From contig CAZJZB010000002.1 in assembly GCA_964550425.1 (NCBI GenBank), forward strand, positions 1,626-65,625: a DNA stretch of 64,000 nucleotides, given 5' to 3'. Below are positions 729 to 17,916 of the stretch, piece by piece. The DNA is from an uncultured Candidatus Saccharibacteria bacterium. GTDB taxonomy: Bacteria > Patescibacteriota > Minisyncoccia > Phycocordibacterales > Phycocordibacteraceae. The position numbers and the translations under genes were made by a program. The notes under the pieces are model-generated. The model was not told where the DNA came from, made no database searches, and was given only the letters and a program-made list of their open reading frames with translations. The number at the start of each line of letters is the position of its first letter. The stretch's first letter is position 1.

Positions 729-1286
729 ATGCACAAAATAACCAACACCTTCAGTAAGGAACCACAGGCGACGCTAGACCTGATAGCGACGTATGACCCG
801 CGAGTCATATCCTGGCTGGATAACAAAGTTAATCTGTTGTTAACTGACTATTTAGGAATAAGAAACTCGCCGTACGGGATTGTTAATATGAGTGACTATT
901 CATACTTGATTACTCCTGCTTTCAAAGCTCTCGAGGGTACCCTAATTCAAATTGCGCGAGAACTCGGTCTTAATGTCGAAAAGGCGGATATAAGAATAGG
1001 AGTAGTTTTTAGTGAGGAGAATCTTGAAATGTTTTACCAGGATGTATTGAATCAAATTGAAGATTTATCAAAAGAATCCAAGGCCGATATCACAATGTGG
1101 CTTAATGACGCACGTCGTTTTCTTCGTCATTTTCGTCATTCGCCAGCCCACTACGGTGGAGATACTAAACAGAACTGGGATCAAGCTTTTGCTGATGGTG
1201 ACCACGTGTTACGAATAATCAATGGTATGTGTTCCGTTTTGTTAGAAAGTGGGGTTTTTGAAAAAGCGAAAACCAAAAAGACGTAG
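729..1286 (+). CDS. hypothetical protein (185 aa) with a possible HEPN-like Rx4H motif (RRFLRH) near the C-terminus
   Basis: ORF track 720..1286 (TTG); the first ATG is at 729. Amino-acid composition is protein-like. It has motif NDARRFLRHFRHSPAHYGG and sits between the tRNA-Ile gene and tRNA-Ile fragments. The stop TAG at 1284-1286 lies inside a tRNA-like CGTAGCTCAG segment. Confidence 0.5.
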   Translation: MHKITNTFSKEPQATLDLIATYDPRVISWLDNKVNLLLTDYLGIRNSPYGIVNMSDYSYLITPAFKALEGTLIQIARELGLNVEKADIRIGVVFSEENLEMFYQDVLNQIEDLSKESKADITMWLNDARRFLRHFRHSPAHYGGDTKQNWDQAFADGDHVLRIINGMCSVLLESGVFEKAKTKKT

Positions 1287-2176: not shown

Positions 2177-3931
2177 ATGGATGCAAAAGCGCATTTTCAT
2201 GGGAAGCGCATTACCGTGATGGGTCTCGGCCTCTTGGGCCGTGGCGTGGGGGATGCGCGGTATCTGGCCGAATGCGGTGCGGAGCTCATTGTGACCGACC
2301 TTAAAACGCGTGAGGAGCTCGCAGAATCGGTAGCGCAGTTGGAGTCATTCTCAAACATCACATTTATCTTTGGCGAACACCGACTCGAAGATTTCCGCGA
2401 CCGCGATCTCATCCTTAAGGCCGCAGGCGTTCCCTTTGATTCGCCCTATATTGCGGAGGCGAAGAAACACAAGATACCGGTCCGCATGAGCGCTGATTTA
2501 TTTGCGGAGATCTCAAAGATTTCCATCATCGGCGTGACGGGCACCCGCGGCAAATCGACCGTGGCGCACATGGTGTACGCCATTCTCAAAGAAGCCGGAA
2601 GGAAGGCCGTGCTCGGGGGGAACGTGCGCGGTGTTTCAAATCTTGAACTGTTAAAAGAGGTTACATCAGAACATACTGCCGTACTTGAACTTGACTCGTG
2701 GCAGCTACAAGGGTGGGGCGACGCGAAGATGAGCCCATATATCGCGGTATTTACCACACTCTACCCGGATCATTTGAACTATTATGGTTCGACTTCGCTC
2801 ACCACAGGCACGAACAATCTGGATGCATATTTAGCGGACAAAGCGAATATCTTCCGCTTCCAGAAGCCCGCGGATACGCTCATACTCGGCAAGCAGTGTG
2901 CACCGACTATCATTGATACGTACGGCGAGCAGATTGAATCAAAAACGTCCATCATTGACGAGACGAAGATTCCTGATACCTGGGTTCTGAAGGTTCCCGG
3001 GATGCATAATCGTTACGACGCCGCACTCGCGCTCGCTGCCGCTCGCGCGGCCGGCGCCCCTGACGAGACGAGCCGTAAGGCGCTCGAGGTGTTTGTCGGC
3101 GTCCCGGGCCGACTTGAGCTCGTGAGGGAGGTGAAAGGCGTGAAGATATATAACGACACTACCTCAACCACGCCAGAGGCAACACTTGCTGCACTCTCTG
3201 CGTTCGATCCGGCGCACACAATACTGGTCATGGGAGGCGCCGATAAGATCCTCGACATGGAAGTGCTGCTCGCACGTCTTCCAGAAACAAAGAAAGTCAT
3301 TGCGCTCGCCGGCAGTGGTACGGAACGTATCAAAAGCCAGTTGCCAGAAGGTACGGTGACGTACCATTCTATCTTTGATGCAACCGCCGCTGCGCTCTGC
3401 GCTGCCGGGCTTGGCGACATCGTCCTTCTCTCGCCGGCATTTGCTTCATTTGGCATGTTCAAGAACGAATTTGATCGCGGGGATCAGTTCAATACGCTGA
3501 TTCGCAACATACCCGATATAAGCTTGCTCAAGCCGAAAGTCAGAGAACTCGCAGGTCGGTTGATTACAGAGTGCGAGCGGCGAGGATTCGCCGTTGTTGT
3601 TTCTCGGGCGTTCCGCACATCCGAGGAGCAGGACGAATTCTATGCGCAGGGACGGACGAAATCGGGAGCAATCATCACTATGGCACAGGGAGGTTCATCT
3701 TTTCATAACTACGGAGTCGCATTTGATATAAAGCCAATAGTCACAGACGGCGATGAAAAGACGAGAGCGGAGCTATACCGGAAAGCGGGGAAGATTGGCA
3801 TGGACCTCGGGCTTGAATGGGGCGGGATCTGGAAAGAATTTGTAGATCCACCACACTTTCAGTACACAGCCGGGTACTCGATCGAGGACTTTAAAAATGG
3901 TCGAATAGAAGAGGAAAAATTTTCCCTATGA
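2177..3931 (+). CDS. murD: UDP-N-acetylmuramoylalanine--D-glutamate ligase (MurD) fused to a C-terminal peptidase M15 (CwlK/VanY-like, L-Ala-D-Glu peptidase-type) domain
   Basis: The N-terminal about 440 aa is a Mur ligase (ITVMGLGLLGRG Rossmann-like, GVTGTRGKST P-loop, MurD-like architecture). The C-terminal about 130 aa has the M15 SxHxxGxAxD (SFHNYGVAFD) and W...H (LEWGGIW...PPHFQ) motifs. Confidence 0.8.
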   Translation: MDAKAHFHGKRITVMGLGLLGRGVGDARYLAECGAELIVTDLKTREELAESVAQLESFSNITFIFGEHRLEDFRDRDLILKAAGVPFDSPYIAEAKKHKIPVRMSADLFAEISKISIIGVTGTRGKSTVAHMVYAILKEAGRKAVLGGNVRGVSNLELLKEVTSEHTAVLELDSWQLQGWGDAKMSPYIAVFTTLYPDHLNYYGSTSLTTGTNNLDAYLADKANIFRFQKPADTLILGKQCAPTIIDTYGEQIESKTSIIDETKIPDTWVLKVPGMHNRYDAALALAAARAAGAPDETSRKALEVFVGVPGRLELVREVKGVKIYNDTTSTTPEATLAALSAFDPAHTILVMGGADKILDMEVLLARLPETKKVIALAGSGTERIKSQLPEGTVTYHSIFDATAAALCAAGLGDIVLLSPAFASFGMFKNEFDRGDQFNTLIRNIPDISLLKPKVRELAGRLITECERRGFAVVVSRAFRTSEEQDEFYAQGRTKSGAIITMAQGGSSFHNYGVAFDIKPIVTDGDEKTRAELYRKAGKIGMDLGLEWGGIWKEFVDPPHFQYTAGYSIEDFKNGRIEEEKFSL

Positions 3932-9379: not shown

Positions 9380-9418
9380 TGGCGTCAGTACAGCGATTTT
9401 CATACTAATCTTTCACGC

Positions 9419-10552
9419 ATGAAGCGCGTACTCATCTTCTCCCTCGCTTATTACCCGCATGTCGGCGGAGCTGAAGTCGCTCTCAAAGAAATCACCGACC
9501 GCCTGTCTGATAGTGAATTTCACATGCTCACACTCAACTTCGGCGCTGATGCACCGGAAGAAAAAATCGGGAATATTTTTGTACACCGGATAGGGAACAG
9601 CTCCTCGTATCTTTCTAAAATCTTGTTTGCGCCGCGCGCCGCAAGAGCGGCGCGCGTTCTCCATCAAACGCTTCATTTCGACGCTTTCTGGGCGCTGATG
9701 TCTTACATGCTGTTTCCCATCGTCCTGCTTCGCCTCATCGGAATTCGCGTGCCGTATCTGCTTTCGCTCCAAGAAGGCGATCCTTTCTCGCGTATGTTCA
9801 ATCGCTGGTTTATCCTCCCATTCCGACCACTCCTCTCTATCGGATTCCGAAATGCTTCGGCAGTGCAAGCTATCTCCACGTATCTTGCTCAGTGGGCAAC
9901 TATTATGGGTTTCAAAAAAGAGGTTGCAGTTATCCCAAATGGGGTAGATCTCGAACGTTTTACGGAAACCTCACATCCTACCATCGTGACCGCAGGCGTC
10001 GTTAATCTCATTACCGCCTCCCGCTTGGTCTACAAGAACGCGCTTGATGAGGTCATTCGGGCTCTCGCACTGCTGCCGGAAAACGTTCAGTTTGTAGTAT
10101 ATGGCAGCGGTCCTGACGAAAAGAAATTGCGTTCGCTCGCCGAAGATTTAAAGGTGTCAAACCGTGTACTCTTTAAAGGCCACAGGCCTCATGCTGATTT
10201 AGCTCGAGCATTTGCCACGGCCCATATCTTTATCCGTCCTTCGCGTTCAGAAGGAATGGGAAACTCGTTTGTTGAAGCGATGGCGGCTGGGCTGCCAGTT
10301 ATCGGGACGCAGGAGGGCGGCATCAGCGACTTCCTCTTTGATGCGAAAAGAAACCCCGATAAGGAGCCGACCGGCTGGGCGGTTGATGTTGATTCGCCAG
10401 AACAAGTCGCAGAAGCGGTTAGGGATATTCTTACTCATCCCGAACAGGTTGCGCAGATGACCGCGAATGCTAAACGCATGGTGACGGAGAAATATGATTG
10501 GAATCTCATCGCCAAGCAGATGCGGGGCATATTCGCTAGAATAGGCGTATGA
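9419..10552 (+). CDS. glycosyltransferase family 4 (GT-B, glycos_transf_1)
   Basis: Has the C-terminal GT4 motif RPSRSEGMGNSFVEAMAAGLPVIGT. Confidence 0.8.
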   Translation: MKRVLIFSLAYYPHVGGAEVALKEITDRLSDSEFHMLTLNFGADAPEEKIGNIFVHRIGNSSSYLSKILFAPRAARAARVLHQTLHFDAFWALMSYMLFPIVLLRLIGIRVPYLLSLQEGDPFSRMFNRWFILPFRPLLSIGFRNASAVQAISTYLAQWATIMGFKKEVAVIPNGVDLERFTETSHPTIVTAGVVNLITASRLVYKNALDEVIRALALLPENVQFVVYGSGPDEKKLRSLAEDLKVSNRVLFKGHRPHADLARAFATAHIFIRPSRSEGMGNSFVEAMAAGLPVIGTQEGGISDFLFDAKRNPDKEPTGWAVDVDSPEQVAEAVRDILTHPEQVAQMTANAKRMVTEKYDWNLIAKQMRGIFARIGV

Positions 10553-11643
10553 AGCTCGTCATCGCGACCCCCCTCTATCCGCCCGAAATAGGCGGTCCGG
10601 CGACCTACGTGAAGCTCTTAGAAGAGGGACTACCCAAGAGGGGTATCGGAGTTTCTGTGGTCAAATTTGGCGAGGTGCGGTATTTGCCGAAGCTTATCCG
10701 GCACTATGTCTACTACCGCCGCGTCCTCGCGGCGGCGCGCGGTGCCGACGCCGTTCTCGCGCTTGACCCGGTCTCGGTCGGCTTGCCGGCGATGAAGGCG
10801 GCGCAAAAGGCGGGGAAGCCCTTTGTCGTGAAGGTTGTGGGCGACTATGCGTGGGAGCAGGGTACCCAGCGGTTTGGCGTAAAGCAGAATCTAGATGAGT
10901 TCGTGCGCACGCCACAAAAATCTTTCTTCGTACGCAGAATGCAAAGAGTTCAGACGCTTGTGGCACAAAGCGCCGCACAGGTTATCGTGCCGAGCGAATA
11001 TCTGAAAGGTATCGTAACAGCGTGGGGCATCTCAAGCCAGAAGATACAGGTTATCTATAATGCCGTGTCTATCGATTCAATAGGGACAGTGCCTGAAGCC
11101 ATGAATAAACTACCGCGACCATTAGTTGTCTCTGTTGGTCGCCTCGTACCATGGAAGGGTATGGACCGCCTCATCGATGGAATGTGGGCAGCACGTAGAA
11201 AAGGGTCAAATGCCTCGCTGGTTATTGTGGGTAGCGGACCTCTAAAAACCGAACTTGAGAGGAAAGCAAGATTTCTACTAAAGGATAATTACTGGTTTGC
11301 TGGAGAGCTCTCGCATATTGATACACTCGCGGCCATCAAAGATGCCGATATTTTCGTCCTAAATTCTTCGTATGAAGGGCTTTCGCATGTCTTGATAGAG
11401 GCTCTCAAGCTTGGAACATGCATTCTCACCACGAACGCTGGAGGAAATGACGAGATTGTTGTACGAGGCACCGGGATTACCATTAAAGTCGGGGATGAAG
11501 CTCGATTTGCTTCGAGCCTTCGAATACTTATTGAACACCAGGAAGAACGATCTCGTCTTTCATCTGCTGCGAAACAATCCGGACAAAGGTTTTCGTTAGA
11601 AACTATGCTCTCTGCAACGGTTACGGCGTTGCAAAACATATGA
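10549..11643 (+). CDS. glycosyltransferase family 4
   Basis: The YPPEIGGPATYV N-terminus and SYEGLSHVLIEALKLGTCILTT motif are typical of GT4. ATGA overlap with the upstream gene. Confidence 0.8.
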   Translation: MKLVIATPLYPPEIGGPATYVKLLEEGLPKRGIGVSVVKFGEVRYLPKLIRHYVYYRRVLAAARGADAVLALDPVSVGLPAMKAAQKAGKPFVVKVVGDYAWEQGTQRFGVKQNLDEFVRTPQKSFFVRRMQRVQTLVAQSAAQVIVPSEYLKGIVTAWGISSQKIQVIYNAVSIDSIGTVPEAMNKLPRPLVVSVGRLVPWKGMDRLIDGMWAARRKGSNASLVIVGSGPLKTELERKARFLLKDNYWFAGELSHIDTLAAIKDADIFVLNSSYEGLSHVLIEALKLGTCILTTNAGGNDEIVVRGTGITIKVGDEARFASSLRILIEHQEERSRLSSAAKQSGQRFSLETMLSATVTALQNI

Positions 11644-12761
11644 AAGTCCTCTTTATTTCAAATGATCCGACGATATTTGATGCGGGGAGCGTTGCTCGCG
11701 GGCGCATGCGCACATACGCGGCGTTCATGGGAGAATTGCACATTCTGTCTTTTGCCGATCGAAATACAACAGAAGAGCAAGAACAAAATCTTTTTCTTCA
11801 TCCAGTGCATGCATGGGCATTCTTGCGCATTCGTGTGCTCGCGGAGCGGGCACACGAACTTATTCTGAAGCATGACATTGAAGTTGTCTCGGCGCAGGAC
11901 CCTTTTGAACATGGACTTGCCGCGCTACGGGCCGTGCAGGGCACGAACGCGAAGCTGCATATTCAAGTGCATACCGATTTTCTTTCACCATGGTTTGTGA
12001 AGGGTGGCACGTTACGCACCTCATTCCTCAATCGTTACCGCCGTAGGATCGCTGATCGTGTTTTGCCAGCGGCTAGCGGTGTCCGAGCAGTTTCCGAGCG
12101 CGTAAAGGATTCACTTGTGGCCCGCTATGGTTCGCGCATTCCCGAACCATCGGTCATTCCCCTTACGGTTTCTATGGAGATACCAACACGCGCATCATTG
12201 CCTACGCACACCTTCACTTTCGCACTCATTGCGGTCGGGCGCTTGGAGCCCGAGAAACGCATTGAGGATATCCTTACAGCACTCTCGCTTGTCATCAAGC
12301 AGTATCCGATACTAGGACTTTTCATCGTCGGCGATGGTCGCGAGCGCGGTCGGCTTGAACGCCTGACACGTACTCTTAATCTTGAGAAACATATCGTCTT
12401 TCTCGGAGAACGTTCCGACGCGCGAGCGCTTATGGGAAGCGCGCAGGCATTCATCCAAGCGAGCGCGTATGAGGGATATGGCCGTACGCTTATTGAGGCA
12501 GCGCTTGCCAGGATTCCTATCATCACGACCGATGTCGGCATCGTGGGGGAAATATTTAAAGACCATACAGATGTGCTTGTAGCGCCGGTTGCCAATCCCA
12601 AAGCTCTCTCGCTCAATATCATCAGATTCATAGAAGATACCGCGATGCGACAAGAACTTCCGAGGCACGCCGAAGATACTGCGCGAGTGCATCTTGCCGT
12701 ACAAGGGAATATCGCGGAACGCATCCGGGACGACCTCATAGGCACACTGCAGAAGATATGA
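11640..12761 (+). CDS. glycosyltransferase family 4
   Basis: Has the GT4 motif SAYEGYGRTLIEAALARIPIITTDVG. ATGA overlap. Confidence 0.8.
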   Translation: MKVLFISNDPTIFDAGSVARGRMRTYAAFMGELHILSFADRNTTEEQEQNLFLHPVHAWAFLRIRVLAERAHELILKHDIEVVSAQDPFEHGLAALRAVQGTNAKLHIQVHTDFLSPWFVKGGTLRTSFLNRYRRRIADRVLPAASGVRAVSERVKDSLVARYGSRIPEPSVIPLTVSMEIPTRASLPTHTFTFALIAVGRLEPEKRIEDILTALSLVIKQYPILGLFIVGDGRERGRLERLTRTLNLEKHIVFLGERSDARALMGSAQAFIQASAYEGYGRTLIEAALARIPIITTDVGIVGEIFKDHTDVLVAPVANPKALSLNIIRFIEDTAMRQELPRHAEDTARVHLAVQGNIAERIRDDLIGTLQKI

Positions 12762-13852
12762 CAACACGAGCGCAGAAACGCCTTACCATTTGTTTTTTTG
12801 GTTACGATGAGAAAGATGAAGGCGGACGCGCATGGACAATACGGACCGGTCTTGCTGAAAACGGTGTCACGATCAAACAGTGTCGGACGCTTGTTAACGG
12901 GTTTTTTCCGAAATATCGCAATCTATATCTGAAATGGAGAGACATATCAGCTGTGGATGCGATGTACGTTATTTTCATGGGCTACTATCTGATGCCGCTT
13001 GCGTGGTACCTCGCGCGCCGACGGGGGATTCCGGTAATACTCGATACGCTCGTATCGCAATATGATACCGAAGTCACAGATCGCAAGAGAGTGTCGCGTT
13101 TTAGTTTGCGTGCGTGGTTTTTATGGGCAGCGGATTTCATTTCCTGTTTCATTGCCGATGCGATTGTCGTTGATACGCGCGAGCATAAGAGATTTTTTGC
13201 CGAAAAGTTCTTCGTCAATCCTCGGAAGATTATCATCATTCCTGTCGGATGCCGTTCCGACCTCTTCAAACCGTTTCCTCATGTGAAGAAATCGGACGAT
13301 GAATGTACCGTTGAATTTCACGGGGGGTTTAGTCCATTACATGGCGTCGAATACATCATGGAGGCAGCAAAAATTCTGCAGGATAAGAATGAGAATGTAC
13401 ATTTTGAGATTACCGGCAGAGGGCAAATGTTTGCAGAGATCACTCATATGGCTAGAGAGCTTCATCTCGCGAACGTTGCATTTTTTGATATGAAACCAAT
13501 AGAAGAACTTCCTCGTTCTATTGCGCGAGGCGATATATGTCTCGGTGTATTTGGAACGAGCGCAAAGGCATTGCGTATTATTCCAAATAAGGTTTATGAA
13601 TGTCTCAGTTGCGGAAAGCCGGTCATCACCGAACGTTCCCCGGCCGCGCTTGAGATGTTGCACGATCGCGAAGATGTCTACATGGTAGAGCCAGGTAATG
13701 GGACCAATCTTGCCGAGAAAATCTTGGAACTGAAACACAACTCAGCGGAGCGCGCCCGTCTCGGCGAGCGCGCCCGCGCCATCTCGCTTGCCGCATTCTC
13801 CTCGCATACAATCACTCTTCCGCTCGTAGAGTGGCTCGAATCACACGCATGA
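12758..13852 (+). CDS. glycosyltransferase, GT4-like
   Basis: Has the C-terminal motif KVYECLSCGKPVITERS and Rossmann-like halves. ATGA overlap. Confidence 0.7.
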   Translation: MTTRAQKRLTICFFGYDEKDEGGRAWTIRTGLAENGVTIKQCRTLVNGFFPKYRNLYLKWRDISAVDAMYVIFMGYYLMPLAWYLARRRGIPVILDTLVSQYDTEVTDRKRVSRFSLRAWFLWAADFISCFIADAIVVDTREHKRFFAEKFFVNPRKIIIIPVGCRSDLFKPFPHVKKSDDECTVEFHGGFSPLHGVEYIMEAAKILQDKNENVHFEITGRGQMFAEITHMARELHLANVAFFDMKPIEELPRSIARGDICLGVFGTSAKALRIIPNKVYECLSCGKPVITERSPAALEMLHDREDVYMVEPGNGTNLAEKILELKHNSAERARLGERARAISLAAFSSHTITLPLVEWLESHA

Positions 13853-13917
13853 ATCCCGTTAGAAATCACGAACCACAACCAATAAACCGAAAAACATCGG
13901 GTTCTATTTCTAACGGG

Positions 13918-14901
13918 ATGAAGCTACTGATCATCACCCAAGTAGTTGATTCCGAAGACCCGATATTGGGATTTTTTCACCGTTGGATAGAGGAGTTTGC
14001 CAAGCATGTCGAGCGAGTCGAGGTTATTTGTCTCAAGGAGGGTCGCCACGTTCTGCCGGCACATGTACAGGTTCATTCTCTGGGCAAAGAACGTGGAGCA
14101 GTCGGGCGCGCCACGTACGCGCTACGCTTTCTCCTGCTTGCATGGCGCTTGCGGCGCGATTACAACGCGGTTTTCGTGCATATGAATCCCGAATACGTTA
14201 TGCTCGCCGGGCCGCTCTGGCGGCTCTGGGGCAAGCATGTCGCCTTATGGTACACACATAAAAGCGTCAATCTGAAATTACGGATAGCAGTTCTATTTGC
14301 ACATGTCGTTTTCACCGCCTCGATAGAGAGTTTCCGGTTGGGGACAGCGAAACTCCGCATCATGGGGCATGGCATCGATGTTGATTTTTTCTCTCCCGAT
14401 TCAAGCGTACAGCGAGGAACTACAGTGCTTTCAGTAGGTCGACTTTCCCCGATAAAGCGCCACGATATCGTCATTCGCGCGGCGAAGCATTTCCCAAATG
14501 ACGTCCATATCGCAGGCGATGGACCGGAAATGCGTCATTTAGAGAATCTAACAAAACATCTCTCCCTCGTTTCGCGCGTGCATTTTCTAGGATCGAAAAC
14601 ACAAGAACAATTGCGAGAAGAATACCGGCGGGCAGGCGTCTTCGTTCATGCGAGCGAGACGGGTAGTTTGGACAAAGTCGTGCTTGAAGCGCTCGCCTGC
14701 GGCCTCCCGGTCATTACGACGAGCGCGTCTTTAAAGAATCTTCCGGTCACTGTAGTGTCCGCCACGCCGGATGCCATCGCACAAGCAGTTATCAGCGTGC
14801 GAGACGCGAACGCGCAATCGCTCGTTACCTATGTACAAGAACATCATTCGCTGCAGCGTCTCGTTCCCACGATACTTGGTATTATGCGAGACACTATATG
14901 A
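13918..14901 (+). CDS. glycosyltransferase family 4
   Basis: ORF track 13831..14901; start chosen at MKLLIITQV (ATG 13918). Carries the motif ASETGSLDKVVLEALACGLPVITT. Confidence 0.75.
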   Translation: MKLLIITQVVDSEDPILGFFHRWIEEFAKHVERVEVICLKEGRHVLPAHVQVHSLGKERGAVGRATYALRFLLLAWRLRRDYNAVFVHMNPEYVMLAGPLWRLWGKHVALWYTHKSVNLKLRIAVLFAHVVFTASIESFRLGTAKLRIMGHGIDVDFFSPDSSVQRGTTVLSVGRLSPIKRHDIVIRAAKHFPNDVHIAGDGPEMRHLENLTKHLSLVSRVHFLGSKTQEQLREEYRRAGVFVHASETGSLDKVVLEALACGLPVITTSASLKNLPVTVVSATPDAIAQAVISVRDANAQSLVTYVQEHHSLQRLVPTILGIMRDTI

Positions 14902-15992
14902 AAATCGGATTCGTCGCAGAGCCCTATGAAGAGTCCGGTGCTTCCGGCATGGGCTATATGATTTGGGAGTTCTTGAAAAATCTGCCTGTTGCGGGAAGAA
15001 ACCACGAGTTCACCATCTATTCTTCTATGCCTATACGAAAAGATCTTGTACCAGTTCCTGTGCGCAATGTCATAGTCCCAAAAGGTTTTCTAGGGAAGTT
15101 TCTCTGGTTTTTATGGACAAAGGAAGATATAGATGTCCTCTTGTTTGTTACGCCGCTCCTGCCGCTCATACTGCCACATCGCATTGGGGCAGTGTCTATT
15201 TGTCCGGAACTAGTGAGTCAAAAAATAATGCCCGGATCGCTCCGCGACAAATTCTTGGCATTTCTTCGCGATTATATACTTATGCCGATATGCTTGCGGC
15301 GTGCTCTTAAAATCATCACTATCTCGCACGCTACAAAAGAAGATATAATTAAATATTATAAGATTCCATCAGAGGATATCTCCGTCATATACGTTGGTTT
15401 TCAGGACCTCAGCCCGTATAAAGACACAGCGCCCGTGGTTGATGAGAAAATCAAGCCATATTTCTTTTTTACTGGAAGGGTAAAACCGCGTAAAAATGTC
15501 CACGCGATAGTATCCGCATTCATACGATTCAAGAAACGGACGCACGCTGACTGCAAGCTTGTGATAGCAGGCAAGGCCGGTGGCGACTATTACCAATTGA
15601 TGCTTACAGAGCTTGAGAAAAATGGAATGCAAGCCGATGTATTTTTTGTCGGTTATGTGTCGACGGAATTGCTCTGTTCGTATTACATGCATGCGTTGGC
15701 GTTTGTCTTTCCGTCGCTAAACGAAGGGTTCGGCATGCCGGTTGTTGAGGCAATGAACCTTGGTGCGCCCGTTATTACCTCCTCTATTTCATCTCTACCC
15801 GAGGCGGCCGGAGACGCAGGGTTATTGGTTGATCCATATGATATCGAGGATATTAGCCGCGCTATGGAAAAAATATTTTCTGATTCCGGTCTGCGCGCGA
15901 CACTTATCGAAAGAGGATACGCGCAGGCAAAGAAATTCTCTTGGGAGAAAACAGCGAGAGAATATATGTCCGTCATAGAAGGGGTCATATGA
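14898..15992 (+). CDS. glycosyltransferase family 4
   Basis: Has the GT4 motif PSLNEGFGMPVVEAMNLGAPVITSS. ATGA overlap. Confidence 0.8.
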   Translation: MKIGFVAEPYEESGASGMGYMIWEFLKNLPVAGRNHEFTIYSSMPIRKDLVPVPVRNVIVPKGFLGKFLWFLWTKEDIDVLLFVTPLLPLILPHRIGAVSICPELVSQKIMPGSLRDKFLAFLRDYILMPICLRRALKIITISHATKEDIIKYYKIPSEDISVIYVGFQDLSPYKDTAPVVDEKIKPYFFFTGRVKPRKNVHAIVSAFIRFKKRTHADCKLVIAGKAGGDYYQLMLTELEKNGMQADVFFVGYVSTELLCSYYMHALAFVFPSLNEGFGMPVVEAMNLGAPVITSSISSLPEAAGDAGLLVDPYDIEDISRAMEKIFSDSGLRATLIERGYAQAKKFSWEKTAREYMSVIEGVI

Positions 15993-17086
15993 CACCGACC
16001 GATCACCTTACGCTGTATGTGAATCCTTCGTGGCGCCGTTCAGGTATCCATACGCCGCTCCTGAACCCATGGTGGGGTAATCCAAACGAGGAATCATCGG
16101 TCTTAGCAAAACAGCTCTTTGATACCTATTCGTTTGATACTGCGTACTACACCATCACTGATAACCTTGAAAAGGCCGATATGGTGTTCGCGCCCTATCG
16201 GCATAATTGGCTGTTACAGTTCGATACCGCTTTACTTGCGGAGTGTACTAATGCCGCACAAACTGCAAATCTTCCACTGCTCTTAGATGGTTGCGGAGAT
16301 GTTGAGCATCCCCTTGATATAGAAAACGCATTTATTCTTCGCATCGGCGGGTACCGTTTTATGAGCGAGCGTGGGAGGATACAGATACCACCTCTCGCGG
16401 ACGATCTCTTGGAGCGGTACAGGGCCGGCCGCCTTGATATTCGCAAAAAAACAGAAGGGAAGCCCATCGTCGGATTTGCGGGTTGGACCAAGCTCTCTCC
16501 CACGCAGTATCTCCGAACGGTTATAAAAGAGTTGCCGGTGCGCGCACGCGGCGTCATTGACGCACGATATCGAGCTTGTATCAAGGGCGTATTGTGGCGT
16601 CAAAAGGCGATACAGATACTAAAACACTCTTCCCTCGTAACGCTCACTCTCCGCGCGCGACATTCTTTTTCCGCGAGTCCAAAGACGGCAGAAGGCGATA
16701 TGTCGAAACTCCGAGAGGAAATGGTTGAGACCATACTGCAAAGCGATTACGCGCTTGATGTGCGCGGGGACGCAAACGATTCAACGCGGCTGTTTGAGAT
16801 ACTATCGCTGGGGCGCATTCCCGTTATCGTTGATACTGAACGAAACTTTCCTTTCAGCGACACAATTGATTACTCGTCTTTTGCGCTCATAATTGATTTC
16901 CGCGATATCAATCGTTTATCCGAACGGATAGCAGAATTTCATAAGAACATTTCGCCGGAACGATATGAACAGATGCAACAGAATGCTCGCGATGCCTACA
17001 TGAATTATTTCCGCATTGATGCGCTTATGCGGCCGATTGTAGAGGAACTACAAGCAAGAATGTCATCTAAAATCACTTTTCGCTAG
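15989..17086 (+). CDS. exostosin-like (GT47-type) glycosyltransferase domain protein
   Basis: Start at the ATG overlapping the upstream stop (MTPTDHL...). C-terminal RLFEILSLGRIPVIVDT...FPF resembles the exostosin-family signature. Moderate confidence. Confidence 0.6.
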   Translation: MTPTDHLTLYVNPSWRRSGIHTPLLNPWWGNPNEESSVLAKQLFDTYSFDTAYYTITDNLEKADMVFAPYRHNWLLQFDTALLAECTNAAQTANLPLLLDGCGDVEHPLDIENAFILRIGGYRFMSERGRIQIPPLADDLLERYRAGRLDIRKKTEGKPIVGFAGWTKLSPTQYLRTVIKELPVRARGVIDARYRACIKGVLWRQKAIQILKHSSLVTLTLRARHSFSASPKTAEGDMSKLREEMVETILQSDYALDVRGDANDSTRLFEILSLGRIPVIVDTERNFPFSDTIDYSSFALIIDFRDINRLSERIAEFHKNISPERYEQMQQNARDAYMNYFRIDALMRPIVEELQARMSSKITFR

Positions 17087-17916
17087 CGCCATGCGAAAAT
17101 CATATACGTATAAATAGTGTCTTTGCCGATCATCTGGTGCGGCAGTGCTGTGGACTGCACAAATGTATGGAACCCATGCGTCTTGAGCAAGGTAAGCATC
17201 TCACTCAGCGTTCGTGTGAAGAATCCAGGGATGTAATGGTACTCAAGCTGTATTGACGCAATATGCCGTAACGCATGTTGTGCTTCGAGTTCTTCCAGGA
17301 CATCAAGCTCTCCTCCTTCAATATCTATCTTGAGCAGATCAATCGCTTCATCGATATAGTGCGAAAGAGTATCAACTTCTACTTTATACGAGTTGAGAAC
17401 ACGACCACTCTTTCCCAAATGATGTGCGACGCTCCCTCCGCTACTTGTTGGCACTTTGTCCTCAACGAAAAACTCTGTCCTACCTTTTTCTTTTCCGAGT
17501 GCGTACGGGAATACCCGGACGTCCTTTCCCCAAGCATTTGCCTCGATATTTTTCTCTAGCACCGCCCGGGCGGCGGGATTTGGCTCAAAACACATAACGC
17601 GTGCATGAGGCGCACGGGTCTTGATATAGAGAAGCGACACGCCGATATTCGCTCCGCAGTCGATGACATTAATCGGCTCCTGTGTAGGTACGAGGGAATA
17701 GGTCTCTTTGAAGAAGATTTCTGTGAAAAGCCCTTCGAAGAAGGCAAGTGAGGGAAAATAAAATACATATGTTCCTACAGGGATGCGAGCAAGTTTTCCT
17801 CCGCGGGGTGGGTTGATCTTGTTCCTTATATGCGCCACCGTAAAGGCGCACGCCGCTCTAAAACCGATAAGCGCACGAAGCTGCGAAAAGTATCCAATGA
17901 ATCTGAAAAATTTCAT
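17083..17916 (-). CDS. FkbM-family SAM-dependent methyltransferase
   Basis: IDCGANIGVS...FEPNP and LLKIDIEGGELDVL signatures. Confidence 0.75.
   Translation of the reverse strand: MKFFRFIGYFSQLRALIGFRAACAFTVAHIRNKINPPRGGKLARIPVGTYVFYFPSLAFFEGLFTEIFFKETYSLVPTQEPINVIDCGANIGVSLLYIKTRAPHARVMCFEPNPAARAVLEKNIEANAWGKDVRVFPYALGKEKGRTEFFVEDKVPTSSGGSVAHHLGKSGRVLNSYKVEVDTLSHYIDEAIDLLKIDIEGGELDVLEELEAQHALRHIASIQLEYHYIPGFFTRTLSEMLTLLKTHGFHTFVQSTALPHQMIGKDTIYTYMIFAWR

Follow-up and report, generated by a model that had tools for sequence, protein, structure and literature searches.

A minimal predicted HEPN ribonuclease of the RnlA/LsoA type in a variable slot between tRNA-Ile and its degenerate copy in a Saccharibacteria genome

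What kind of protein is encoded by a gene wedged between an intact tRNA-Ile gene and a fragmented copy of the same tRNA, and what could it do there? We addressed this question for a protein of 185 amino acids (aa) from an uncultured Candidatus Saccharibacteria bacterium, encoded on a 64-kb stretch of contig CAZJZB010000002.1 that was analysed as a whole and is called the window below. A sequence-only reading of this DNA had described the protein as an orphan, with the R-x4-H motif of HEPN RNases near its C-terminus and a gene placed at a tRNA integration hot spot. The orphan label does not hold: the protein belongs to the RnlA/LsoA toxin type, as a new and minimal form of it. In the explanation that we favour, and hold to be rather probable, it is a minimal, dimeric and metal-independent HEPN endoribonuclease of this type, carried as accessory cargo and acting as a toxin or defence effector whose control involves no conserved neighbouring protein. 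The two elements at the centre of the question are these, in window positions:

652-725, + strand: intact tRNA-Ile, anticodon GAU (ARAGORN; Rfam RF00005, 73.2 bits).
729-1286, + strand: HEPN gene, 185 aa, RnlA/LsoA (RNase LS) family, with predicted catalytic residues K66, E69, R136 and H141.

The open reading frame (ORF) comprises 185 codons and a TAG stop, and the product of the public gene call (P0001) is the identical protein. Only 3 nucleotides (nt) lie between the end of tRNA-Ile(GAU), the sole tRNA across the window, and the ATG; the alternative longer start, a TTG at 720, falls within the tRNA. The tRNA gene does not encode CCA and has CTA instead. At the other end, the TAG (1284-1286) coincides with U8-A9-G10 of a D-arm piece, CGTAGCTCAG, so the stop codon indeed lies within a tRNA-like fragment. 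Run SRR8863434, assembled independently, gives a 1,062-bp Logan contig with 100% identity to 652-1713, and the arrangement is therefore not an assembly chimera. Nor is the ORF a chance one, since it has 48 homologs at E<=1e-3, with invariant residues. The position of the ORF between tRNA-Ile and its fragmented copy is thus real, as attested by ARAGORN and Rfam, by three colinear tRNA pieces and by the identical independent assembly.

The family of the protein is given by Pfam PF19034 (RnlA-toxin_DBD, the HEPN domain of RNase LS), which it matches with 32.2 bits (E=1.6e-7; the gathering cut-off is 27). The match spans residues 30-141 and profile positions 20-123 of 125. PF18869 (HEPN_RnaseLS), a related model, reaches 14.1 bits, under its cut-off, and scans of the protein with PADLOC, PHROGs and NCBIfam return nothing significant. 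A large protein collection holds 48 homologs (E 1e-63 to 1e-8), all single-domain proteins of 180-222 aa, nearly all of them with a precomputed PF19034 domain. An exhaustive HMMER pass over 1.84 billion representatives (50% identity) finds only 44 members, so the family is small. About 50-80 homologs are known, with hosts that are Patescibacteria or unnamed metagenome contigs only; a profile scan of genome contigs yields a single locus, in a Peribacteria metagenome-assembled genome.

Structural evidence points the same way. Compared with PDB sequences, the family profile has one match, LsoA 5hy3, at E=2e-6, which together with the Pfam score bears out the HEPN call and dismisses the orphan label. 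The AlphaFold (AF2) model built on the alignment is all-alpha (pLDDT confidence 89, predicted template modelling score 0.87), and its best Foldseek matches in the PDB are RnlA (6y2p and 4i8o) and LsoA (5hy3), with probabilities of 0.96-1.0: the all-alpha HEPN fold that was expected of such a search. The best viral match, in BFVD, is an 'RNaseLS-like protein' (probability 0.99).

The catalytic motif lies next to the one first proposed. The string NDARRFLRHFRHSPAHYGG holds two overlapping Rx4H arrangements, R129..H134 and R136..H141, and an alignment of 76 homologs separates them clearly. R136 and H141, like D56 and E69, are invariant (76/76 each), and H137, P139 and A140 are nearly so; K66 is found in 75/76 sequences, the remaining one having R. 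By contrast, the pair R129-RFLR-H134 is variable, with R129 in 51/76 and H134 in 25/76. An invariant R/H pair thus exists as the sequence-only reading had supposed, at R136/H141 and not in its RRFLRH motif. In the family-profile alignment, R136-HSPA-H141 falls on R305-HGLF-H310 of LsoA and FKALEG on L-R243-A-I-E246-G, which places K66/E69 opposite R243/E246; K66 in place of R is a conservative replacement. RnlA depends on each of the equivalent residues (R255, E258, R318 and H323) for both RNase activity and toxicity; within the canonical HEPN dimer they make up a composite site (PMC8266594). We therefore predict R136-x4-H141 (RHSPAH) as the catalytic motif, with K66-x2-E69 as second pair, and assign the protein to the RNase LS branch of HEPN with great confidence as to both family and motif.

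By analogy with RnlA, the protein presumably dimerises: two copies would form the canonical HEPN dimer, to which each contributes its R136-x4-H141 and K66-x2-E69 as parts of a composite, metal-independent RNA-cutting site. The RNase activity predicted in this way is, to us, reasonably likely; a defence or toxin role is more tentative, slightly short of evenly balanced.

The accessory nature of the gene emerges from its composition and from the same locus in relatives. Its G+C (GC) content of 40.9%, against 48.8 +/- 4.1%, is within the lowest 1% of same-size stretches, and the GC of its third codon positions is 0.40 against 0.53-0.66 in neighbouring genes. The inserted DNA amounts to ~560 bp and is practically a bare ORF, its stop codon being supplied by the degenerate tRNA copy (pseudo-tRNA). 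Relatives share the order 16S rRNA, tRNA-Ile, (prcB), murD, murC, rsmI, traG-like; the run prcB-murD-murC-rsmI-TraG-like is common to L018, L019 and L020, and the best MurD relatives are ~71-76% identical to window MurD, which marks the genome as a Patescibacteria one (Parcubacteria / Paceibacterota / Kaiserbacteria-like). The HEPN gene is absent at this locus from all five related lineages (L018, L019, L020, L021 and L022-L029). In L018, an intact tRNA-Ile precedes PrcB_C by 55 nt, with neither pseudo-tRNA nor slot; in L022-L029, tRNA-Ile stands directly before murD, again with no pseudo-tRNA or slot (L022). In L020, 12 nt separate tRNA-Ile from the same degenerate tRNA copy as in the window, and no ORF intervenes. 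L019 has the same scaffold, its slot filled by a 151-aa ORF that is not related to the HEPN protein and, from its sequence, looks like a membrane protein. As relatives thus lack the slot, have it empty or have another ORF in it, the HEPN gene occupies a variable slot, and we consider it highly probable that it is accessory, foreign low-GC cargo. To this extent the idea of a tRNA hot spot stands; the site has no integrase, and its attachment-site (att) structure is not a textbook one.

How would such a bare ORF be expressed? The remaining elements of the slot are needed here, together with the first host gene past it:

507-537, + strand: promoter-like block GTGGAAGATTA..TTTTTGGTAGTATC, conserved in the window, L018, L019 and L020.
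541-651, + strand: extra leader between the promoter block and the tRNA, with hairpins at 574-589 and 607-642; in the window only, absent from L018, L019 and L020.
1282-1297, + strand: D-arm fragment (tRNA positions ~6-21), 5' acceptor strand missing; 88% identical to 657-672.
1299-1316, + strand: terminator-like hairpin GCCGT-CGGA-ACGGC, then TTTT, in the D-loop insertion of the pseudo-tRNA; read from the sequence.
1391-1417, + strand: hairpin, inverted copy of leader hairpin 610-636; a related hairpin is at L019 2253-2280.
1431-1465, + strand: pseudo-tRNA piece with the 3' side of the D-stem and the anticodon arm; loop CTGATAC intact, stem degenerate.
1466-1521, + strand: 56-nt insertion in the T-stem 5' strand of the pseudo-tRNA; centre of the conserved 89-nt block 1445-1533.
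1522-1546, + strand: pseudo-tRNA piece with T loop, 3' side of the T-stem, acceptor 3' strand and encoded CCA; 1522-1543 is 95% identical to 704-725.
1626-2138, + strand: first host gene past the slot, a PrcB_C-domain protein (Pfam), followed by murD, murC, rsmI and a TraG-like gene.

With its ATG only 4 nt past the discriminator base, the gene lacks space for a promoter or Shine-Dalgarno sequence of its own, and transcription from the tRNA promoter is therefore most likely. The HEPN gene would be transcribed from the tRNA-Ile promoter, presumably the block 507-537, and 3' processing of the tRNA would free its mRNA in a nearly leaderless form. The hairpin 1299-1316 in the pseudo-tRNA is a putative terminator that may end the transcript; L019 and L020 have similar hairpins in the corresponding position. 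Co-transcription with tRNA-Ile and release by 3' processing are in this way suggested by the layout of the sequence.

From the block 507-537 to the start of the tRNA there are ~114 nt in the window, against 8-25 nt in L018, L019 and L020. The leader that is extra in the window is ~110 nt long; the arms 607-622 and 627-642 of its second hairpin are 94% complementary. Positions 610-636 also form an inverted repeat with 1391-1417 (27 nt, 85%). The tRNA-Ile and HEPN genes and the D-arm piece are enclosed by these inverted repeats. The repeats could mark a transposon or an invertible segment, an idea with no recombinase in sight and no junction evidence in its favour.

Downstream of the ORF come three colinear pieces of the same tRNA-Ile, arranged as in the tRNA itself. 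The degenerate copy is built alike in all the genomes that have it: D-arm piece, hairpin-bearing insertion, anticodon-arm piece, 56-nt insertion, T loop and acceptor. Its D-arm fragment recurs in the equivalent place at L019 2204-2219 and L020 2226-2236; the anticodon-arm match 1440-1465 is 88% identical, with 17 nt exact; and 1522-1546 corresponds to the ancestral tRNA position, ~80 nt before prcB, which in L018 is taken by the intact tRNA-Ile. A functional intron-containing or split tRNA was considered and rejected, as all three genomes lack its 5' acceptor strand and neither the anticodon stem nor the T stem shows co-variation.

The degenerate copy is better conserved than the functional tRNA. 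Its 89-nt block 1445-1533, which leads from the anticodon loop via the 56-nt insertion to the T loop, is identical at 83-86/89 positions (93-97%) among the window, L019 (~2311-2399) and L020 (~2293-2381), and the 56-nt insertion itself at 53-54/56. The functional tRNA-Ile genes of the same three genomes agree at 59-66/74 positions (80-89%), and the D-loop insertion adjoining the block at 19-32%. Even in L019 and L020, the block follows the window/L018 type in its tRNA-like parts; past it, the acceptor strand differs between genomes. Rfam gives no match for the pseudo-tRNA block at E<=10, its fold z-score of -1.8 is not clearly better than that of shuffled sequence, and a DNA search of IMG/VR contigs, GenBank phages and PLSDB plasmids finds no relatives of the pseudo-tRNA. 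The 89-nt block is either a constrained functional element, RNA or recombination site, or the recently spread end of a mobile element.

The host genes around the slot show several features of their own. Two promoter-like motifs, TTATACCCA (1576-1584) and GCTATACTG (1612-1620), are conserved ahead of the PrcB_C gene. The window tRNA-Ile is 100% identical to that of L022-L029 (e.g. L022 3576-3649) and matches L018 at 73/74 positions. It is thus identical to the tRNA of a lineage whose MurD is only 71% identical, and 81-89% identical to those of lineages with 73-74% MurD; the sequences suggest that the tRNA-Ile gene itself may have been exchanged between lineages. Window MurD (2177-3931) has 584 aa and a C-terminal VanY or peptidase M15-type domain (PF02557, PF13539); most of its relatives have 436-460 aa and no VanY domain, and a few fused versions are 55-56% identical. 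The public MurD calls in L022-L029 (488 aa; e.g. L022 3501-4967) start upstream of tRNA-Ile and run through it, and their start is probably mis-called.

The spacer from 16S rRNA to tRNA-Ile holds different genes in each relative, among them LAGLIDADG homing-endonuclease ORFs that follow the 3' part of the 16S rRNA gene upstream of tRNA-Ile (L019 446-1090, L020 608-1126). In the window, three consecutive short ORFs (2-130, 186-299 and 302-490) occupy a low-GC stretch (~42%) upstream of the tRNA; their translations show apparent hydrophobic helices, and they have no counterpart in L018-L020. Pfam gives no match at E<=0.001 for 2-127 and 186-296, and only weak below-cut-off matches at E<=0.1 for 302-487. 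Further away, at ~9400-17100, the window holds a run of at least seven same-strand ORFs of ~360-380 aa whose GC is higher and lower by turns; two of them were checked, and both are group-1 glycosyltransferases.

Is the setting beside a tRNA typical of the family? We examined 16 homolog loci, the window included. A tRNA gene lies within ~110 nt of the HEPN gene at four of them: tRNA-Ile at 3 nt in the window, tRNA-Ala 37 nt upstream in L002, tRNA-His 22 nt downstream in L005 and tRNA-Leu ~106 nt upstream in L013 (binomial P ~2e-4, with an assumed background of 2% per gene). Three of these four (the window, L005 and L002) also have a damaged second copy of the same tRNA across the HEPN gene. In L005, a 54-nt, 96% identical copy of tRNA-His positions 7-60 is followed by the HEPN gene and the intact tRNA-His; in L002, the order is tRNA-Ala, HEPN gene and, 870 nt downstream, inverted tRNA-Ala pieces split by a 25-nt hairpin. 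The damaged copies tend to be broken at the T loop, in keeping with tRNA-targeted recombination; neither the window slot nor the called genes closest to the tRNA-linked homologs include one for a recombinase. As side observations on these loci, L005 7153-7285 matches the Rfam LOOT RNA with 60.8 bits, above the gathering score, beside an OLD-family nuclease gene, and L002 5440-5889 is a ~450-nt non-coding gap upstream of tRNA-Ala with no Rfam family at E<=1.

At the other 12 loci, neither a tRNA nor a piece of one adjoins the gene. The neighbours there include restriction-modification (R-M) methyltransferases, MmeI-type enzymes, an OLD-family TOPRIM nuclease and PIN and NYN nucleases, as well as a HEPN-MNT pair, a resolvase, a superinfection-immunity protein and ordinary housekeeping genes. 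With R-M genes, nucleases, a HEPN-MNT pair and a resolvase nearby, the homologs do occur in mobile or defence contexts, as anticipated. The anticipated antitoxin or MNT partner did not materialise. All-against-all BLASTP (1e-4) of the ORFs within 2.5 kb at the 16 loci reveals no recurring family except the HEPN gene itself; the window slot holds no other credible ORF as antitoxin candidate, and none of the tested abutting ORFs has an RnlB or MNT Pfam match.

Several observations weigh against a toxic or defensive RNase expressed from the tRNA. An antitoxin would be expected for a strongly toxic RNase, and none was found in the 16 loci; some homologs stand singly among housekeeping genes, as in L006, between trmD and POR genes. 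The PADLOC defence models do not match the protein, and the GenBank phage, PLSDB plasmid and IMG/VR collections hold no homolog of it. The Foldseek E-values against RnlA and LsoA are weak (0.07-0.45), with template modelling scores of 0.52-0.59. A sigma-70 and terminator consensus scan called neither the block 507-537 nor the hairpin 1299-1316, whose T-run is under the threshold. RnlA itself supplies another objection: without its TBP1 domain it binds no substrate and is inactive (PMC8266594), so that the HEPN domain by itself may cut RNA poorly or need another factor.

The absence of a partner leaves room for a conventional toxin-antitoxin pair, whose antitoxin would have gone unnoticed, being very small, quick to evolve, encoded at another site or made of RNA. 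RnlA and LsoA are, after all, type II toxins checked by RnlB and LsoB (PMC3710099; PMC8266594), and small ORFs do flank some homologs: in L016, a 163-aa ORF 5 nt upstream and a 74-aa ORF 10 nt downstream; in L017, a 66-aa ORF upstream. Still, no neighbour family recurs within 2.5 kb over the 16 loci at the BLASTP threshold of 1e-4, the abutting ORFs lack RnlB and MNT matches and the window slot has no second credible ORF, all of which makes a hidden pair unlikely in our view. The same lack of an antitoxin, the inactivity of the bare RnlA HEPN domain, homologs among genes such as trmD and the location of the locus in the old 16S-tRNA-Ile spacer region would also suit a non-toxic, housekeeping-type HEPN protein that processes or binds RNA, for example in maturing the rRNA/tRNA transcript around it. 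We find this improbable for a gene that is absent at the locus from all five related lineages, foreign in composition and part of a tiny family (44 representatives in 1.84 billion proteins), whose catalytic tetrad is conserved throughout and many of whose homologs have defence or mobile neighbours.

A third alternative takes the tRNA as part of the system. The RNase would act on tRNA or tRNA-like transcripts, as an anticodon nuclease or processing enzyme, with the linked tRNA or pseudo-tRNA as its substrate, decoy or antidote. Such coupling would explain the repeated landing in tRNA units beside a damaged copy of the same tRNA, which is seen at three loci with three tRNAs (Ile, His and Ala), each with intact tRNA, gene and degenerate copy; a fourth locus has tRNA-Leu ~106 nt upstream, the enrichment is at P ~2e-4, and HEPN anticodon nucleases exist in PrrC and RloC (PMC3710099). 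However, the pseudo-tRNA scaffold is present without the HEPN gene in L019 and L020, 12/16 loci have no adjacent tRNA or tRNA piece, and breakpoints at the T loop are expected from tRNA-targeted recombination anyway. The anticodon loops, moreover, are identical in intact and degenerate copies, with no 'resistant' variant, and the idea of a resistant tRNA antidote was rejected on this ground. Altogether, we regard tRNA coupling as highly improbable. A related thought concerns the site instead of the enzyme: the intact tRNA and the twice-interrupted, 5'-truncated pseudo-tRNA could constitute a landing pad, a tRNA-embedded expression slot so far undescribed in the Candidate Phyla Radiation (CPR), in which promoter-less ORFs use the promoter of the tRNA and are freed when the tRNA is processed, the 89-nt block being a functional RNA or recombination site. 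This is quite unlikely as a whole. In a stronger version of it, the RNase family may be functionally tied to tRNA transcripts, hence its recurrence between a tRNA and a damaged copy (Ile, His, Ala).

With the minimal HEPN endoribonuclease as the explanation that we prefer, the locus matters for two reasons. The defence and toxin repertoire of Patescibacteria is poorly known, and an HEPN-only relative with the full catalytic tetrad provides a test case of how substrate choice and self-protection work without TBP domains or RnlB. The locus is also a concrete tRNA-linked variable slot in a streamlined genome, beside a pseudo-tRNA of unusual conservation. In practical terms the gain is modest, unless a function emerges for the pseudo-tRNA block or for the coupling to tRNA.

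It remains to compare the locus with known systems. Genomic islands and prophages that target tRNA genes are bounded on one side by the intact tRNA and on the opposite side by a direct repeat of the 3' portion of that tRNA. The slot resembles them in its intact tRNA-Ile on the left and a 22-nt, 95% repeat (T loop to 3' end) on the right that abuts host DNA, in its cargo of foreign composition and in relatives with empty or differently filled sites. Unlike them, it measures only ~800 bp and contains no integrase or recombinase, the HEPN gene being the only ORF in 726-1521. Its degenerate copy keeps D-arm and anticodon-arm pieces in order, with two insertions between, is present in cargo-free relatives and is better conserved than the functional tRNA; the partial copy in L005, for its part, is the 5' 60 nt of the tRNA, placed upstream.

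Among HEPN proteins, those of the HepT/MntA systems are small single-domain RNases with an Rx4-6H motif that act as dimers. The 185-aa protein is likewise a small, single-domain HEPN protein with an R-x4-H motif. It differs in that no MNT nucleotidyltransferase gene adjoins it, either in the window slot or at homolog loci, and in that its Pfam match is to the RNase LS subfamily and not to PF05168; the HEPN-MNT pairs near some homologs are separate genes. PrrC and RloC are HEPN anticodon nucleases with links to phage defence and tRNA biology (PMC3710099). Both are large proteins in which the nuclease is fused to an ABC-ATPase, and both go with R-M systems, whereas the 185-aa protein is a single domain, with no ABC-ATPase or Rad50-like region and no PrrC/RloC match in Pfam, NCBIfam or PADLOC; a tRNA substrate for it is pure speculation.

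The closest known proteins are RnlA (RNase LS of E. coli K-12) and LsoA (plasmid pOSAK1), the HEPN toxins of the anti-T4 systems RnlAB and LsoAB. They have ~350 aa against 185 aa here, and TBP-like or RNase H-like domains are described for the RNase LS family (PMC3710099). The 185-aa protein is a single domain without the two TBP-like domains (NTD/NRD) or RNase H-like domains. It has instead a conserved, family-specific helical N-terminal extension of ~50 aa, in which W29, D40 and Y41 are invariant in close homologs. Its loci have no RnlB, LsoB or Dmd-type partner, its hosts are Patescibacteria, and its identity to RnlA and LsoA is ~15-21% in structural alignments. The RnlA/LsoA branch thereby gains a minimal architecture: the catalytic domain alone, a new N-terminal extension and no visible antitoxin. 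What unites the three proteins is the common Pfam family PF19034, the fold, for which RnlA and LsoA are the best structural matches, and the catalytic residues: R136/H141 aligns with R305/H310 of LsoA and R318/H323 of RnlA, and K66/E69 with R243/E246 and R255/E258, respectively, K here standing where R stands there.

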